Of a stretch of 64,000 nucleotides of DNA, positions 23,093 to 36,686 are shown piece after piece. The stretch lies in assembly GCA_963700285.1 (NCBI GenBank), contig CAVOXA010000015.1, positions 96,001 to 160,000 of the forward strand, in the 5' to 3' direction. The position numbers and the translations under genes were made by a program. A model generated the notes under the pieces. That model saw only the letters and a list, made by a program, of their open reading frames with translations, was not told where the DNA came from and ran no database searches. Positions within the stretch are counted from its first letter, which is position 1, and each line of letters begins with the position of its first letter. The stretch comes from an uncultured Chloroflexia bacterium. GTDB lineage: Bacteria; Chloroflexota; Anaerolineae; JAAYZQ01.

Positions 23093-24425
23093 CTACGACT
23101 CGATGACCTCTACCTTCTCGGTCAGGCCGATGCCCAGCCTGGCCAGTTCAGCCAGCACCGGTTCATAGATCTCGGGGATCACGGGTACGTGTACACCGGT
23201 CAAGTCCCGGGAACTCGCCGTGCAGGATCATTCGGACGGCGATGGCCGCCGGCAGGCCCACGGTGCGCGCCATCGAAGTGTCGCCGTTGGGGATGCCATA
23301 GTCGATCATGGTGGCCGTGATGGCCTCTTTGCGATCCGGATACTCGGCCACGAACTCGTGCTGCATGACGATCAGTCACGCTCGCCCGGCTTGTAGGCCA
23401 GTCTTGGCCTCCATCCGCGCCGCCAGGACGTCGAGACGGGTATTCTTGCCCTCCGGCAGCGGCTCATCGGAGAAGAGGCCCAGCCAGTCCAGGTCGGTGA
23501 TCGGTTTGGAATCGTCGCACATGCCCCACTGCTCGGCCAGGTACTGGGGGAAATCGGTGTCAGGGCTGACATCCAGCAGGCGGGCCGTGAGTTCGCGGAA
23601 GGTCGCCGGTGGCTCAGCAAAAGGGCTATCGTCCAGGAAACCCATCTCGGCAATCTTTTTCAGTGTGGCGCACCAGCCCACGTTGCGCAGCGTGCCCCGG
23701 AACATCCAGTCGGTGGGCTGGATGCCGTAGATCTCCGGCATAGGGCATGCTGTCGCGGTTGGGATAACCCTCAAACTCGCCCAGGCCTTCAATGTACACT
23801 GGCCAGTAGTGGTCGAACAGTTCCTCGCCGGGTATCTCGACGACTTGGCCATTCCTTTGGAAGCGGGCCGGATTCTTGCCCGCCAGCAGCACACCCTCGC
23901 GGGCTCCAGGAGAACTTGTAGCCAAAGGGATTGTCGCTGGCTTCTGGGGCCGGGCAGACCTCCAGTCCAGGACACAAAGCTGACGATCTTGCCGCCCTTG
24001 CCCTCCACTTCGTGGATGACCTTCATGGCCGACATGTGGTCGATGCCGGGATCCACGCCGATCTCGTTCAGCAGGATGACGCCCGCCTCCTTGGCCGGGC
24101 CATCCAGGGCAAGCATCTCATCCTTGACGTAGGAGGTGGTCACCATGTGTTTCCCGTGCTTCACACACAGGGCGGCGACCTTGGGATGGTAGACGTAGGG
24201 CAGCATGCTGACCGCCAGGTCGCTTTGGCGGATCAGGTCTTCCATCGCTGCCTCGTCTGTCACGTCGAGGGCAATGGCCCTACCCCGGGGATGGCCATCG
24301 ATCAGCGCTTCCGCCTTGCTCACCGTGCGGCTGGCCACGGTCACTTCAAAGTCCGGCACGTCCAACAGGTAGCGGACGTGTGGCCTGGTCACCAGGCCGG
24401 CTCCGAGTACGAGAACTTTTTTCAT
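23093..24425 (-). CDS. Saccharopine dehydrogenase (L-glutamate-forming, Lys9/SDH type), split by about 5 frameshifts
   Basis: VLVLGAG, HMVTTSY, NEIGVDPGIDH, NPFGYKFSWSPRG, EGYPNRDS, RGTLR and SMARTVGLP motifs spread over adjacent frames. Confidence 0.85.
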
Positions 24426-24518
24426 TGGTCTAGTCCCTCCACAGTCTCAGATCTGCTCTTTGTCCATTGGCAACACGCAACATGAATCACAAGTACGCAG
24501 TCACTATTGCGCTGTCAG

Positions 24519-25835
24519 CTAGTCCAGAAACTCCTGGATGTACTGGTAGTCCGGCGTCAATTGGCCTCGGTAGGCAATGACCGCCCGCTTGATCTCCGGC
24601 GGCAGGTCGCAGTCCTCAAAGGATGCAGAAAAGTCACATCTGGGCCATGGCCGGGATAAAGGGCGCAAGAACGTGGCTAAAGTCGGCGGATGCTTCGCGG
24701 GGCAGTTCGCTGGGCAGGATCTCCACGGCCATGATGACGACGCCCGGTCCCTCGTGACCGTCAGTCACCGCGCCGGTCAGCGGGTTCGTAGACGTAGATC
24801 GGGTCGCCCGGCTCGGTCGCTTTGACCGTACATTCGATGGCCCCCTCCACGTCACAACTGATGTCGCCGATGACGCGCAGACCGGGGCTTGGCCTCGGCC
24901 GCCAAACAGCGTCTTGAGATAGGCTTTGGTCACCAGGCGCGGATAGGCATCGGTCCAAAAGATGGCGTTGACCAGCACGGTCAGGTGTGGCACGTACTGC
25001 TCAAAGACTCCTCTGTACTTCTCCGGGTGATCATAGTAGTCCTGCAGCTCAAAGACGCCATCCGGCGACGCTGGCTCTACCATGTGCCATTCTTTGAACA
25101 CCGCCTTGTAGAGGTGATGCCGGGAATAGTCGGTACTCGCTGCGACGGTGGCCACTTCCTCTGGCTCGATCTCGATGACGGGCAGCAGATCGAGCATTTC
25201 TTGGGCGCCTCGCGAGACGTTGCCATAGCCAGCCACGCCGACGATGAGTGGCGTGACCTGTTCGGGCAGGCCCTCGGTCTCGATCCTGGCTCGCACCTGC
25301 GCCAGGGCCTGCTTTGGCCTCGGCCAGGTCGTGGTAGGTGTGGGTCTGGCGCAGTTCGACGAAGGGGTTGGCGATGCCTTCCCAGGCCAGTCGCTGGCCC
25401 AATGCCCACAGGGTGTCGATCATGCCCGCCACGCCGGCGTGCCAGCCAAAGAAGATGAGCCGGCGGTTCTTCTCGTCAACCACCCGCTCATAGTCGATCA
25501 ACGTACAGCCCAGGTCGAGCATCCGCCGCAGCATGGGCATGTTGTAGGGCTGTCCCTTGATGACGTGGGCGAAAAAGACATAGGTCTTGTCTGGCTCAAA
25601 GGACCCCTTCGGGATCTCTTTGATGCCAAGGATGATGGGGCAGGAGACAGATCCTCTTGGACGGGGATGCCCGCTTCGGCGAACTCGGCTCGGTAAAGGC
25701 CCGCATGGGTGACGTCTGGGCTATCACCTGAATGCCGTGCTCCCGTTGAAGCTTGACGGCATCCTGGGGGGTAATGGGCACCCGCCGCTCCCATTCACTC
25801 TTGTCTTCGCGACGAAGTCCGATCATTGCGGTCAT
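24519..25835 (-). CDS. Lysine-ketoglutarate reductase (LKR/LOR; AlaDH/PNT-like fold), split by several frameshifts
   Basis: IGLRREDKSEWERRVPITP, LIDYE, FFGWHAGVAGMIDTL, GYGNVSRGAQE, IGDISCD and MAVEILPSELPREAS motifs across frames; GGAGG RBS. Confidence 0.85.
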
Positions 25836-26030: not shown

Positions 26031-26117
26031 GTACAGGCACAGATGGTGTGAGCCTGTAGGAGCGTTGTCATCGATTGGCGTGTCCCTGCTGTTCCGCCTT
26101 CAGCGTGCAGGCTCAAT

Positions 26118-26146
26118 TTGACAGGGTTGAGCCGTAGTGCTATAAT
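26118..26146 (+). promoter_or_regulatory. Consensus sigma70 promoter, divergent from the LKR promoter
   Basis: TTGACA-17 nt-TATAAT with an extended -10 TG. Confidence 0.8.
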
Positions 26147-26157
26147 CGCTCTCGATG

Positions 26158-26172
26158 TACCCCTGGGGGGTA
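26158..26172. promoter_or_regulatory. CsoR/RcnR-family operator
   Basis: TACCC-CTGGG-GGGTA, the C-tract/G-tract pseudo-palindrome typical of CsoR sites, just downstream of the -10. Confidence 0.65.
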
Positions 26173-26201
26173 TGAGCGTCTTCTGATCAGGAGGAGATCA
26201 C

Positions 26202-26609
26202 GTGGATAGAAGTGAACAGGAAAGGCTCATTTCCGATTTCGTCGACCGCCGTGTGTGGGCCATAGTGGGCGCCAGCCAAGACCAGCGCAAGTATGGAAAC
26301 CGTGTCTATCGCTCGATGCGCGATGCAGGGTACACGGTCTATCCGGTGAATCCCAGGGGCGGCGAACTGGAAGGAGCCAGAGTCTATCCTTCTCTGGCCG
26401 ACTTGCCCCAAGCGCCGGAAGTAATCGATCTGGTCGTACCCCCATCCGTCACCGAAAAGGTGGTCAAGGAAGCGCACGAACTGGGGCTCACCCGCATTTG
26501 GATGCAGCCAGGCGCCGAATCGGAGACGGCTATAGCGTATTGCCGGGAACATGCAATGGAAGTGATCTATGACGCCTGCGCCATGGTTCACAAACGACAG
26601 TGGAACTAG
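26202..26609 (+). CDS. CoA-binding domain protein (YccU-like)
   Basis: AIVGAS, YPVNP, YPSLADLP and IWMQPGAES motifs; AGGAGG RBS. Confidence 0.9.
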   Translation: MDRSEQERLISDFVDRRVWAIVGASQDQRKYGNRVYRSMRDAGYTVYPVNPRGGELEGARVYPSLADLPQAPEVIDLVVPPSVTEKVVKEAHELGLTRIWMQPGAESETAIAYCREHAMEVIYDACAMVHKRQWN

Positions 26610-26632
26610 ACACTCGGTACGAGGAGAATACC

Positions 26633-26965
26633 ATGGAAGAAAAGACGGTGGCACAAGTCCAGGTAACAGTATTTGGCAACCGGCTCCTGGAGAGCTGCGC
26701 GCCAGGTGGTTGAGGGCCGATCAGGTCTTCGGCGGAGACCACGTACATCACTGAGTACTATTTGCAGATGCGGCATGGACAGGCCGTTCAGGTGGAATAT
26801 GTGGACCTGGCGGATCCAGAAAGCCAGGCAGAATACTCTGATCTGCTTGACCTGGTCAAGGATCAAAGCCTGCCCTATCCCCTGGTTGCCATCAATGGGG
26901 AGCTAAGGCTGGCTGGATCGGCTCACTATTTTCGGGTGCTACCGCTCGTGGAAGAAGCTCCTTGA
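26633..26965 (+). CDS. Putative selenoprotein with a thioredoxin-like fold (YuzD/DUF1462-like); in-frame TGA at 26711-26713
   Basis: GAGGAG RBS, then MEEKTVAQVQVTVFGNRLLESCAPGG*GPIRSS... continuing in frame into VQVEYVDL...LPYPLVAING; SECIS-like hairpin at 26724-26740. Confidence 0.7.
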
Positions 26966-27075
26966 GGTACAGGCCGAGGGGGCCGTGGGGTGATCCCTGG
27001 ATTCCGTGCTTGTCGTTCGCACTGATATGCCGACACTCCTGAGCGACCGTTGTCGCCAAACAGTAGTCTCACTGA

Positions 27076-27113
27076 AGGGGGAGATTGACAAGTCTCCCCC
27101 TTTTTGTTACACT
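27076..27113 (+). terminator. Intrinsic terminator overlapping a sigma70 promoter for the ECF sigma gene
   Basis: AAGGGGGAGA...TCTCCCCC followed by a T-tract; TTGACA (27085) in the loop, 17 nt from TACACT (27108). Confidence 0.6.
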
Positions 27114-27183
27114 CCTACCGTGCCGGGTGCCTGCGACCTGACGAAACCTTTTGACCTACACCGCATCTAAAGGAGAAAGCACC

Positions 27184-27802
27184 GTGTTGGGTGTCGCATT
27201 TGCTAGCGAGGCCGAACTGCTGGAGGGCCTGCGGGCCGGTGAGCCCGCAGCCTACCGGCAGTTGGTGGAATCCAACTCAGCCAACGTCTACAACGTGGCC
27301 CTCAAGCTCCTGGGCGACGAGCAGGAAGCTGAGGATGTGCTGCAAGAGACCTTTTTGAACGCCTTTCGAGGCCATCGACCGTTTTGAGGGCCGGTCTCAG
27401 CTCTCCACCTGGCTGTATCGAATTGCCTACAACGCCAGTCTGATGCGCCTGCGAAAACGGGAGGGAATGACGGCCTTTTCCCTGGACGAGCCTCTGGGGG
27501 ATACTGGCGAGGAGCGAGTCTCGCGCCCTCTGGTAGACTGGTCCACGATGCCGGACGACCAACTGCTATCCACCGAAGCCCGCCAGATGATGGATCAGGC
27601 CATTGCTGAACTGCCGGAGACGCTGCGCTCTACCTTTGTCCTGCGTGACATCCAGGGCCTGTCGGGCGCAGAGACCGCCGAGGTTTTGGGTATCAGCGTC
27701 CAGGCGGTCAAGAACCGGCTGCATCGGGCGCGACTGCGACTTCGCGAGAGGTTGTCAGACTATTTTGCCGAGCGCGTCAAGGGTCTGCGGGCCACAACGT
27801 AG
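27184..27802 (+). CDS. ECF RNA polymerase sigma factor (one frameshift near 27370)
   Basis: AEDVLQETFL region 2; STWLYRIAYN in the shifted frame; LP...RSTFVLRDIQGLS...AEVLG...VKNRLHRAR region 4. Confidence 0.88.
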
Positions 27803-27815
27803 GGAGGAGACATCT

Positions 27816-28061
27816 GTGCCAATTGAACATGACCACACCAGCTGTCGTGAGTTGTTGGGCCAGTTCTCCGACTATATCGACGGCGATCTGGAAGTTGCGC
27901 TGTGCGCCGAGATAGAGGCCCATCTAACCGGATGTCCCGACTGCCAGGTGATGATAGACACCATGCGCAAAACCATTACGTTGTACCATAGCCAAGCCGA
28001 AGCCGAACTGCCGTCCGACGTAGAAGAACGCCTATACAAGGTCCTCAACCTCGAGAAATAG
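27816..28061 (+). CDS. Soluble zinc-finger (zf-HC2/ZAS) anti-sigma factor
   Basis: C.ELL..FSDYIDG.L.....EAHLTGCPDC (HxxxCxxC); GGAGGAG RBS; no TM segment. Confidence 0.88.
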   Translation: MPIEHDHTSCRELLGQFSDYIDGDLEVALCAEIEAHLTGCPDCQVMIDTMRKTITLYHSQAEAELPSDVEERLYKVLNLEK

Positions 28062-28271
28062 CGCCCATCGCCCTACCTGCCTCATCTCACAACAGGCATT
28101 CACTGCGCCACCGAAAGCTCAACAGTAACTGTCCTGGCCATCAGATCAGGGCAACGTTTTGATGGTAGGAATCTGTGTCAATTCCTGAAACTTTTGGCTA
28201 CTTTCTGCATCCAAACAGACAACAAGGGAAAAAAGTCTCCCACTAGTTTTCAAGACACAGGAGGTTAGAAA

Positions 28272-28934
28272 ATGGCATTGATTTCCCCGCAGGATGCTGA
28301 GCACTTGCGAAACGAGTTTGAGGCTCAATTGGTTAACCCGGTAAAGCTGGTCATGTTTACCCAGACCATCGAATGCCAGTTCTGCGCCGAGACGCGCCAG
28401 ATTGCCGAAGAGATTGCCGACTTGTCCGACAATATTACGCTCGAGGTCTACAATTTCGTCACGGACAAGGCCACGGCCGATCTGTACGAGATAGACAAGA
28501 TCCCGGCCATTGCCATTCTCCGTTCAGAGGATGGACAGGACAGAGACTATGGGGTCCGGTTCTATGGCATCCCCTCAGGTTACGAGTTCACTAGCATCAT
28601 TGAGGGTATTGTTGACGTCTCCAAGGGCGAGTCGGGTCTCCAGCCCAGGACCAAAGAGGTTTTGGCCGCGCTGACCCAGCCCGTGCATTTTCAGGTTTTC
28701 ATCACGCCTACCTGCCCCTACTGCACCCAGGCAGTCCGGCTGGCGCACAAGTTTGCCATCGAGAGCGACCTGATCCGGGGGGACATGGTCGAAGCCATCG
28801 AGTTCCCACACCTATCCAACAAGTACGGCGTCTATGGCGTACCACGCACGGTGATCAACGAGACGATCCACCAGGAGGGGGCAGTACCTGAACCGATGAT
28901 CTTGGCCAAGATGCTGGAGGCGGTTCAGAATTAG
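28272..28934 (+). CDS. Protein disulfide oxidoreductase with two thioredoxin units (AhpF N-terminal domain/PDO-like)
   Basis: CQFC and CPYC motifs; RFYGIPSGYEF; GVPRTVIN. Confidence 0.9.
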   Translation: MALISPQDAEHLRNEFEAQLVNPVKLVMFTQTIECQFCAETRQIAEEIADLSDNITLEVYNFVTDKATADLYEIDKIPAIAILRSEDGQDRDYGVRFYGIPSGYEFTSIIEGIVDVSKGESGLQPRTKEVLAALTQPVHFQVFITPTCPYCTQAVRLAHKFAIESDLIRGDMVEAIEFPHLSNKYGVYGVPRTVINETIHQEGAVPEPMILAKMLEAVQN

Positions 28935-28967
28935 CAGTCGCACCGAGGGCCTCGCTGGCAGGTAAGT

Positions 28968-29144
28968 GTGAGCGACACAAAGGTTACCTGGGCAGATGGA
29001 ATGCAGTTCATGGCTGAATCAGCCGGCCATTCTATTGTCGTGGATGGGCCGCCAGGCCTTGGCCGCGATACTGGTATGCCGCCCATGAGCCTTCTTCTTC
29101 AAGGAGCAGCAGGCAGTTCGGCAATGGACCCCGAAGGCACATAG
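28968..29144 (+). pseudogene. Truncated OsmC/YhfA-family gene
   Basis: VSDTKVTWADGMQFMAESAGHSIVVDG...GMPPMSLLLQGAAGSSAMD then stop; Ser occupies the catalytic Cys position. Confidence 0.65.
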
Positions 29145-35020: not shown

Positions 35021-36686
35021 CAGCCTGTCGGAGAGAGACAGTTTCTCCGCAGGCCGGATTGATGGTAAACTGATTCCCTGCTTGAGTCACTCAAGCGAGT
35101 TGATAGCAGGGAGAGAGAACGATGGCTCGCAAGTTCAAGATGGTTGACTACGAAAAAGCGCTCGATCAGACGGTAACGATCAGAGATGTTCTGCCACCCG
35201 ATCATCTGGCACGATTCATCGCCAGGGTGATTCTGTTGCTGGACTTGAGTGCCATCTACGCGCAATATGCGCCCGTGGGTGGCGAAGCCTATGCCCCCGA
35301 GCTTCTGCTGGGTCTGTTGTTCTACGGCTATGCCACCGGCGTGTTCAGTTCGCGCAAGATCGAGAAAGCGACGTACGAGTCGATTCCTTTCCGATTTCTT
35401 GCTGGCGGCTGGCATCCGGACCATGACACCATTGCCAACTTTCGGAAGACGTTTCTGCCCGAAATCACGGACCTGTTTGCCCAAGTGCTGGTTATCGCCC
35501 ACGAGTTGGGGGTGCTGAAGCTGGGCAGGATCAGCGTGGATGGCAGCAAGATTCACGCCGATGCGTCCAAAAGCCATGCGGTCAGCTATGGTCGGTTGCT
35601 GCAACTGGAGCGACAGACTGCGGATTGAGGTAGAGGAGTTGATGGCTTTGGGAGAGACAGGCAGATCAGGAAGAGCTGCCAGAAGGCCTGGATGTGGGAT
35701 TCGAGATTGCTTTGCGGCAAGAGCGGTTGCTCAACCTGGCTCAGGCCAAGGCCGTCCTGGAAGCACGAGCTGAGGAACGGCACGAGGCGGAAAAAGCCGA
35801 GTACGAGGCCAAGCTGCGGGAGCGGGAAGAGAAGGCCAAGCAGACAGGGCGCAAACCGCGTGGCAGACGCCCCAAACCGCCCACAGCCGGGCCTCGGGCG
35901 AAGGACCAGTACAACTTCACCGATCCCGACTCGCGGATCATGAAGAACAGCAACAACAAAGGCTTCGATCAGCATTACAATGTCCAGGTGGCGGTGGACC
36001 AAGACTGTCGGTTGATCGTCGGCAACACGCTGTCGAATCATGCCAGCGACAGAGAGGAAGCGATTCCCACAGTGGATGCCATTCCGGCCGAGGTCGGCAA
36101 GCCCAAGGCCGCAGCCTTGGACAATGGCTATTGGAGCCCGACCAACGTGGAGGAATTGGAGAGGCGAGGCATCGAGCCCTATATCGCCACGGGGCGTGAC
36201 AGCCACTATCAGAGCTGGCAAGAACGCTTTGCCCAGCAACCAGAGCCTCCTGCGGAGGAGGCGAGTCTGATCGTCCAGATGGCTTACAAGCTCAAGACGG
36301 TCATCGGCAAGCAGATCTACGGCTTGCGCAAATCGACCGTGGAACCGGTCATCGGCATCATCAAGGAGACGTTGGGATTCCGCCAGTTCTCGCTGCGAGG
36401 GCTGCTGGCAGCGGCTGGCGAGTGGTGTTTGGTATGTCTGGCCTACAACTTGAAGCGGCTGCACATCCTGATGGCTGGCTAAAGGCAAGTCGCTTCCTCT
36501 CCGTGCGTCTGATGAGCTGGAGAGAAAGCGACATGAGAGAGCCAAACAGCCCATTTGGAGTCAAAAATGGGCTCTGATTGGCTATGATCTGACACGGATA
36601 TGGCTGTTCGAAGCATGATTATCGTCAACTTGTGATTCGTACTTGGTCAACGGAGAGGTGATCCCGATTTCCTCTCCGACAGGCTG
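35021..36686 (+). mobile_element. IS1182-family insertion sequence
   Basis: 15-bp terminal IRs CAGCCTGTCGGAGAG / CTCTCCGACAGGCTG, each flanked by CTAG (target duplication). Confidence 0.9.
35122..36482 (+). CDS. IS1182-family transposase (frameshifts near 35615-35660)
   Basis: LPPDHLARFI, YGYATGVFSSRKIE, VDGSKIHADAS, TDPDSRIM, DNGY and RKSTVEPVIG motifs. Confidence 0.88.

Follow-up and report, generated by a model that had tools for sequence, protein, structure and literature searches.

The bacterial SECIS model, as set out in PMC13188914, allows a stem of 4-16 bp with an MFE of <=-7.5 and a loop of 3-9 nt that lies 16-37 nt from the UGA and has a G at position one or two. Among small thioredoxin-like proteins, ArsD uses Cys12, Cys13, and Cys18 (PMC12415280), and no function is established for YuzD/DUF1462 in the portions of the literature covered by the search. 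The cst operator of S. mitis follows the pattern TACCC-N5-GGGTA, and cst operons hold sulfurtransferases together with CoA persulfide reductase; within the CsoR family, x-C-x-C members are connected with persulfide sensing and x-C-H-C members with copper (bioRxiv 2021.07.25.453692). Where the Asn wedge is missing, sensors of the x-C-x-C type may have a different chemistry, and CstR reacts with H2O2 as well (PMC11672702).

The window analyzed here (the whole stretch of 64,000 nucleotides, from an uncultured Chloroflexia bacterium) contains a gene for a small thioredoxin-like protein with an internal TGA codon (table 1). Based on the comparative sequence evidence described below, the internal UGA is very likely read as selenocysteine (U, Sec27). 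The ribosome-binding site, the start codon ATG 26633, the internal TGA 26711, the open frame, and the truncated ORF call that an earlier note had described for this DNA were all found in the sequence. The frame remains open past the TGA (26711-26713) to the next stop codon (26963-26965), but just the final part of it appears in the ORF list (26762-26965, 67 aa).

Table 1. Features of the selenoprotein locus and its surroundings, in coordinates of the window.
Feature	Position	Strand	Remark
Sigma-70 promoter-like site	26118..26146	+	12/12 consensus, extended -10
CsoR/CstR-type operator TACCC-N5-GGGTA (predicted)	26158..26172	.	just downstream of promoter
CoA-binding domain protein (PF13380)	26202..26609	+	first gene of predicted bicistron
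RBS GAGGAG	26621..26626	+	5' of ATG 26633
Selenoprotein CDS as assembled	26633..26965	+	110 codons; predicted Sec at internal TGA
Cys22 codon TGC	26696..26698	+	predicted resolving Cys; >=90% conserved in alignment A1
In-frame TGA, predicted selenocysteine 27	26711..26713	+
SECIS hairpin, 7 bp, 3-nt G-initiated loop	26724..26740	+	stem arms 26724-26730 / 26734-26740
Pro83 codon	26879..26881	+	invariant among orthologues
Probable one-base insertion (assembly error)	26957	+	shortens C-terminal tail
Terminator-like hairpin	27074..27103	+	overlaps -35 box of second promoter 27085-27113
ECF sigma factor	27151..27802	+	frameshifted in assembly
ORF with zf-HC2 zinc-finger anti-sigma domain	27603..28061	+	domain at residues 81-115
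Protein disulfide oxidoreductase (PDO, TIGR02187)	28272..28934	+	Cys form here

The C-terminus of the assembled gene is probably incorrect. An alignment with a genome of the same genus indicates one surplus base at ~26957 of the window and places the stop codon of the relative at TGA 26991-26993, in agreement with the suspicion of the earlier note that an indel near 26960 hides an extension to 26993. The true coding sequence would therefore probably end at 26993 and encode ~119 aa. The surplus base also brings TGA 26963 into frame; this codon was considered as a second selenocysteine and ruled out, being absent from the relatives and accounted for by the insertion. Four public read runs compared with positions 26100-29000 yielded scattered contigs of relatives, none of them over 26876-27160. 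Frameshifts were also observed in the saccharopine dehydrogenase and AlaDh/PNT-like genes (23160-25835) and in the ECF sigma gene (27151-27802) of the window which, together with those in selB and selD elsewhere in the genome, mark the assembly as one with many indel errors. None of the 78 close database matches extends over more than 72% of the query, indicating that the family is stored in truncated form. At a distance from the locus (35122-36482), the window contains transposase-like ORFs in two frames that resemble an IS-like element, judged from translation alone.

The stem of the putative SECIS element begins 10 nt behind the UGA and its loop starts 17 nt after it. The isolated hairpin folds with -8.9 kcal/mol (z -3.33; 0/200 shuffles were as good) and, with its 3-nt loop, 7 bp, and GG, lies within all four ranges of the SECIS model. 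In the 60-nt segment that starts at the UGA, the MFE structure is a competing fold in which the 5' arm is base-paired to the UGA instead (z -0.94); with the UGA omitted, as on the ribosome, the full 7-bp hairpin is part of the MFE structure in 17 out of 24 orthologues. Hairpins of the same geometry follow 322 of the 196,041 TGA triplets of the genome (0.16%), which is the chance rate. A survey of the host TGA codons with this strict geometry returned 89 read-through candidates that are mostly chance matches and missed selD, and therefore serves as a control for chance rather than as a census. Two in-frame TGAs on the minus strand of G000:C1 (plus-strand positions 551582 and 566141) share an EGEG-U-GG context and the same hairpin geometry, and are likely to mark further selenoprotein genes.

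The hairpin is conserved at the level of both codons and base pairs. Among 24 orthologues, which were chosen by protein and are kin and thus not independent, the codons that form the stem are frozen: one Ser is encoded by TCT in 24/24 (background 0.12), another by TCG in 22/22 (background 0.27), and Thr by ACC in 23/24 (background 0.44). Overall, the mean share of the top codon is 0.93 at five stem sites versus 0.58 at 41 other sites. The stem is nearly invariant in the 24 close orthologues, which are therefore uninformative on covariation by themselves. With 15 more distant sequences included (39 in total), six out of seven pairs display double-sided changes, 95% of the cells pair, and the covariation score is reached by 0/500 shuffles; control stems slid along the alignment pair at 39-55%. 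The SECIS-like geometry that the earlier note had recognized is thus confirmed within the constraints of the model, and is joined by the synonymous freeze and the covarying pairs.

The machinery for selenocysteine insertion, whose presence the earlier note had asked to be confirmed, was identified in the host genome (7.05 Mb, 89% complete), which contains selA, selB, and selD above the cut-offs and tRNA-Sec as the sole tRNA with a UCA anticodon. Both selB and selD are frameshifted in the assembly, and selD has an in-frame TGA of its own. The selA gene is present in all 24 genomes whose best match carries the TGA, yet it was found in 55 out of 61 genomes overall, which makes co-occurrence a weak test. 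Outside this set, selA was found in 13 out of 14 further TGA genomes with no match in G135 (88% complete), and a genome that encodes a homologue with C-x3-C (G340) showed no selA match.

The protein was matched in 25 out of 61 genomes. Twenty-four of the best matches contain one TGA at the same codon and in the 25th (G054) the TGA and the hairpin lie behind a frameshift, so that the homologue search proposed in the earlier note returned TGA in 25/25 best matches. Two loci that duplicate L025 and L034 were left out of the orthologue set. A sample at the level of the phylum contained matches in 22 out of 401 genomes, with TGA in 16 of the 23 matches; 12 of these TGA matches were read over the codon, alongside paralogues. 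Furthermore, a metagenome scan for the combined TGA and hairpin pattern identified at least 119 stretches, and 78 of the 80 among the matches listed encode this family. Each of the 78 loci has a Cys one to four residues upstream of U (x4 in 35, x3 in 34, x1 in four, x2 in three, and both x1 and x4 in two), and x5 was seen in two genome loci. The C-x4-U motif pointed out in the earlier note is thus present in this protein, but a spacing that varies from x1 to x5, with x3 about as common as x4, makes it a loose arrangement and no constant of the family. Out of 440 representatives, the 150 best were compared at the Sec column, which is occupied by Cys in 87, Trp in six, and other residues in five, the remaining 52 not covering it; this amounts to Cys in 87/98 covering distant homologues. 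Close Cys forms also exist (P0166, P0144, and P0127). In a tree of 134 rows built with a quick method (75 out of 131 inner branches open), Sec and Cys rows are interspersed and the direction of exchange is not given.

A structure model of the protein (AlphaFold, Cys in place of Sec, 26-row alignment) has a thioredoxin fold with a mean pLDDT of 86.6. The loop that holds Cys22 and Sec27 (residues 21-30) reaches a pLDDT of 54, and the long helix starts at residue 33. ArsD chains come first in a Foldseek search (ranks 1, 2, 6, and 9) and the best TM-score belongs to the YuzD structure 1xg8 (0.67), which also leads a VIA search (Z 9.0, rmsd 3.2, 99 residues) before thioredoxins and ArsD (7.2-7.4). 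By sequence, 1xg8 is the sole strong match in the PDB (E 1e-7), and its CxxC aligns with C22/U27. With 28.4 bits, the protein also exceeds the cut-off of Pfam DUF1462 (PF07315; 25 bits), which bears out the YuzD/DUF1462 thioredoxin layout that the earlier note had named. DUF1462 matches 24 out of 26 family members at E up to 0.1 and ArsD matches three; with a Cys homologue as query, DUF1462 clusters likewise come first in the ESM Atlas, with ArsD at 0.86. The ArsD model NF033727 does not match this protein and gives 23.8 of 90 bits for the best relative. No model of NCBIfam 20.0 matches this protein, and the scores of 26 + 19 relatives all stay well short of the cut-offs; the best score of the HUIPC model NF047660 is 17.5 of 105 bits and lies outside the motif. 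The main clade has no Cys three residues after U, that is, no UxxC. Pro83 occupies the position of the thioredoxin cis-proline.

The genes around the family gene are partly conserved. Within flanks of 1.5 kb at 24 loci, the CoA-binding gene lies directly upstream in 17, an ECF sigma factor lies downstream in 10, and PDO is present in 15; 20 longer loci contain PDO (nine), TrxB (five), Grx-PDZ (four), Trx (three), and OsmC (three). The CoA-binding protein, which has a conserved C-terminal Cys motif, is also encoded next to the family gene in two loci at the phylum level. In the window, the promoter at 27085-27113 serves the sigma, anti-sigma, and PDO genes. The second active site of PDO contains a TGA in seven out of 16 genomes and Grx-PDZ has a TGA form in seven out of 11, the latter genes carrying hairpins of their own. 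Some operons thus stack two or three selenoprotein genes; TGA in the CxxC of PDO or Grx-PDZ neighbors was noted in L194-L196, L203, L204, L206, L207, L211, L223, and L225. In L209 (G340), L199, and L206-L208 a Cys or TGA homologue adjoins thioredoxin reductase, often together with thioredoxin. No ars or cop genes adjoin the main clade in the annotated loci, except for a heavy-metal ATPase upstream in G346.

A paralogous clade carries CGU followed by two more Cys (three to four Cys/Sec in all) and a hairpin of its own with a 5-nt loop placed 2 nt further out (L210:3535-4692 and neighbors, L212, L213, L049, L050, L178, and L189-L191). In G021 its gene immediately follows acr3, and in G020 and G014 it has arsC-like and SBF-family genes nearby; the paralogues of G009, G015, and G267 are not beside acr3, arsC-like, or SBF-family genes. 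It is possible that this clade represents a selenocysteine form of an ArsD-like chaperone.

The earlier note had recognized the gene but missed its regulatory context, that is, the promoter, the operator, and the thioredoxin regulon. The promoter and operator signature upstream of the family gene, newly noticed here, is well conserved: the strict motif occurs within 800 nt upstream in 21 out of 24 orthologous loci, preceded by similar promoter-like sites, and is retained also in loci without the CoA-binding gene. By comparison, the 7.05-Mb genome contains eight strict sites and the expectation is 0.0009 per 800 nt. One of the three loci without the operator has just 472 nt of upstream sequence, and in another (G024) the motif is more distant and precedes a trxB-trx operon. 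Among the phylum-level TGA genomes read over 6-10 kb, one out of seven (G267) has the operator. A relaxed search identified 15 sites in the genome, of which four lie just behind a promoter. One of these belongs to this operon, and the other three precede a CsoR-family gene with trxA next to it, another thioredoxin operon, and a ferredoxin; unlike in cst operons, no rhodanese or persulfide reductase was found among the first ORFs behind these four sites.

The CsoR-family gene before trxA (G000:C10:761973-762694, L228) has an operator upstream of itself and encodes a candidate repressor with Cys30 and Cys59, Phe where copper sensors have His, and Asn one residue earlier. It was matched in 18 out of 23 family genomes and trxA follows 17 of the 19 matches. 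Among 17 orthologues, the operator is located 30-51 nt upstream in 14, and the His is absent in 15 and kept in two. Two other CsoR-family genes bring the host total to three; the operator of the copper-type CsoR, encoded ahead of copZ, is longer and of another kind. The repressor before trxA may be the one that binds TACCC-N5-GGGTA, an assignment made from autoregulation only, and is a candidate for a new, self-regulated sensor of a thioredoxin regulon. The conserved operator predicts that the selenoprotein gene would be induced together with the thioredoxins of the cell under thiol or sulfur stress.

Taken at a probability of roughly 0.6, the protein would be a selenol/thiol redox protein with a Sec27/Cys22 couple that is recycled by Trx/TrxB or PDO and a gene that is derepressed under thiol-oxidation or persulfide stress. 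A CsoR-family dithiol repressor, likely CstR-like, would keep the operon off at TACCC-N5-GGGTA until its two Cys are oxidized or persulfidated. On the transcript, the hairpin 10 nt behind the UGA would be recognized by SelB, which supplies Sec-tRNA. In the model, Sec27 and Cys22 belong to a Gly-rich, flexible loop that precedes the first long helix and lie next to the invariant Pro83. The selenolate would attack an oxidized thiol (disulfide, persulfide, or sulfenic acid, on protein or CoA), Cys22 would resolve the adduct to a selenenyl-sulfide, and Trx/TrxB or the neighboring PDO would re-reduce the protein. Among the observations that speak against this reading, the spacing between Cys and Sec ranges from 1 to 5, and the pair is located on a loop and not at a helix N-terminus as in CxxC redoxins. 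With this loose spacing and position, a ligand-binding loop suits the data equally well.

Such a loop could work as in ArsD and chaperone a metal or metalloid, with Sec and Cys as the ligands that hold As(III), Cu(I), or Hg(II) before it is handed on. The Foldseek ranks of the ArsD chains, the weak ArsD profile matches of relatives, and the frequency of metal sensors among CsoR-family repressors are consistent with this proposal, as is the x4 spacing of Cys13-Cys18 in ArsD, which equals that of the protein described here. It is further favored by the paralogous clade, whose three to four Cys/Sec and positions behind acr3 (G021) and near arsC-like/SBF-family genes (G020 and G014) make an ArsD-like chaperone a stronger reading for the paralogues than for the main clade. 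For the main clade it is rather unlikely, as these proteins offer two ligands and not three, have no adjoining ars or cop genes in the annotated loci bar the heavy-metal ATPase of G346, reach at best 23.8 of 90 bits with ArsD while DUF1462 matches 24/26 (ArsD 3/26), and are preceded by an operator that differs from that of the copper CsoR. Alternatively, Sec might serve as a sulfur or selenium carrier that takes sulfane sulfur from a CoA persulfide on the CoA-binding protein, for transfer to the thioredoxin system. The CoA-binding gene with its conserved C-terminal Cys motif, directly upstream in 17/24 and in two phylum-level loci, would supply the donor, and the operator is of the type found in cst operons with their sulfurtransferases and CoA persulfide reductase. 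This carrier function is nevertheless quite improbable given that the CoA-binding gene is absent from seven out of 24 loci, whereas the selenoprotein gene retains the operator, and that no rhodanese neighbors were seen in the loci examined.

The possibility that the TGA does not encode selenocysteine (being a stop codon, a sequencing error, or a Trp codon, with a short tail or a Trp protein as product) draws on the many frameshifts of the assembly (selB, selD, and the sigma factor) and on Trp in the Sec column, which occurs in six of the best 150 of 440 representatives and in P0080. It is highly unlikely in view of the same TGA in 25 genomes, the coding conservation on either side of it, and the covarying hairpin; moreover, the tail alone would be left without the first strand of the fold, and the sole UCA-anticodon tRNA in the genome is tRNA-Sec. 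Trp at this position had been named in the earlier note as an argument against selenocysteine, but the Trp records are all located on contigs of 546-1638 nt, Cys prevails in the column, and the P0181 cluster contains four versions of the same gene that start behind the codon and lie on contigs of up to 32 kb. The Trp records are thus probably TGA codons that were translated as Trp by gene callers.

No PF07315, YuzD, or ArsD entry was found in Table 1 of PMC9312934 (87 families) or in the accessible Table 1 of PMC13188914 (119 families, 2026), terms for YuzD/DUF1462 and ArsD are absent from the available portions of PMC13326102 and PMC12013277, and the literature search returned no paper that joins YuzD with selenocysteine or ArsD with thioredoxin-like selenoproteins. 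As far as these lists are accessible, the suggestion of an unrecognized selenoprotein family in the earlier note holds and the family is very likely uncatalogued in PMC13188914 and PMC9312934. The bacterial selenoproteome gains a family with a flexible C-x(1-5)-U motif. In databases this family is present only in fragments that are truncated or have Trp misread at the TGA, so that an immediate correction of its annotation is possible. As further families of thioredoxin-like selenoproteins are described on a regular basis, the family alone is a solid but unsurprising addition. With the conserved operator and the repressor, a protein whose function was unknown can now be tested as part of a defined stress regulon, which also provides a handle on YuzD/DUF1462. 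A more speculative proposal, which we consider unlikely to hold in full, is that the redox protein forms the selenium arm of an undescribed Chloroflexota thiol/persulfide regulon under a CsoR-family repressor, stripping CoA or sulfane sulfur from modified thiols together with its CoA-binding partner in operons that stack up to three selenoproteins, and that the Cys-rich sister clade is the selenocysteine version of the ArsD chaperone. If true, this would assign a function to the YuzD/DUF1462 fold for the first time and tie the use of selenocysteine to persulfide sensing.

Compared with the known systems, the closest relative is DUF1462/YuzD (Staphylococcus aureus SA0798, PDB 1xg8), which shares the strand-loop-helix layout, the YP motif, and the thioredoxin-like fold but has CxxC in place of the C-x(1-5)-U-G found here (C-x4-U in this protein); the present family further differs by its UGA and SECIS, its Chloroflexota host, and its thioredoxin operon under a cst-type operator. 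ArsD (PF06953, NF033727; 3kgk, 3mwh, and 3ktb) is likewise a small thioredoxin-like fold with thiol ligands on an N-terminal loop and C-x4-C spacing, whereas the main clade has two ligands (Cys and Sec) where ArsD has three As(III)-binding Cys, scores far below the ArsD cut-off, and has no ars operon in the loci examined. The catalogued small thioredoxin-like selenoproteins (HUIPC NF047660, SaoT, VPGUxxT, Sec.1/Sec.2, and SELENOW-like) also carry a single Sec with a partner Cys in a thioredoxin fold and were found by UGA/Cys pairing, but the motifs listed for them are UxxC, CxU, UxC, CxxU, or VPGU. Finally, the predicted regulation resembles that of CstR and the cst operons of Streptococcus, Staphylococcus, and Enterococcus in the operator pattern and possibly in the repressor, as the candidate has two Cys and lacks the His ligand in 15 out of 17 orthologues, but the genes behind the operator (judged by the first ORFs) are thioredoxins, a ferredoxin, and this operon instead of rhodaneses and CoA persulfide reductase, and the candidate repressor has Phe and not the Asn wedge at the Y position.
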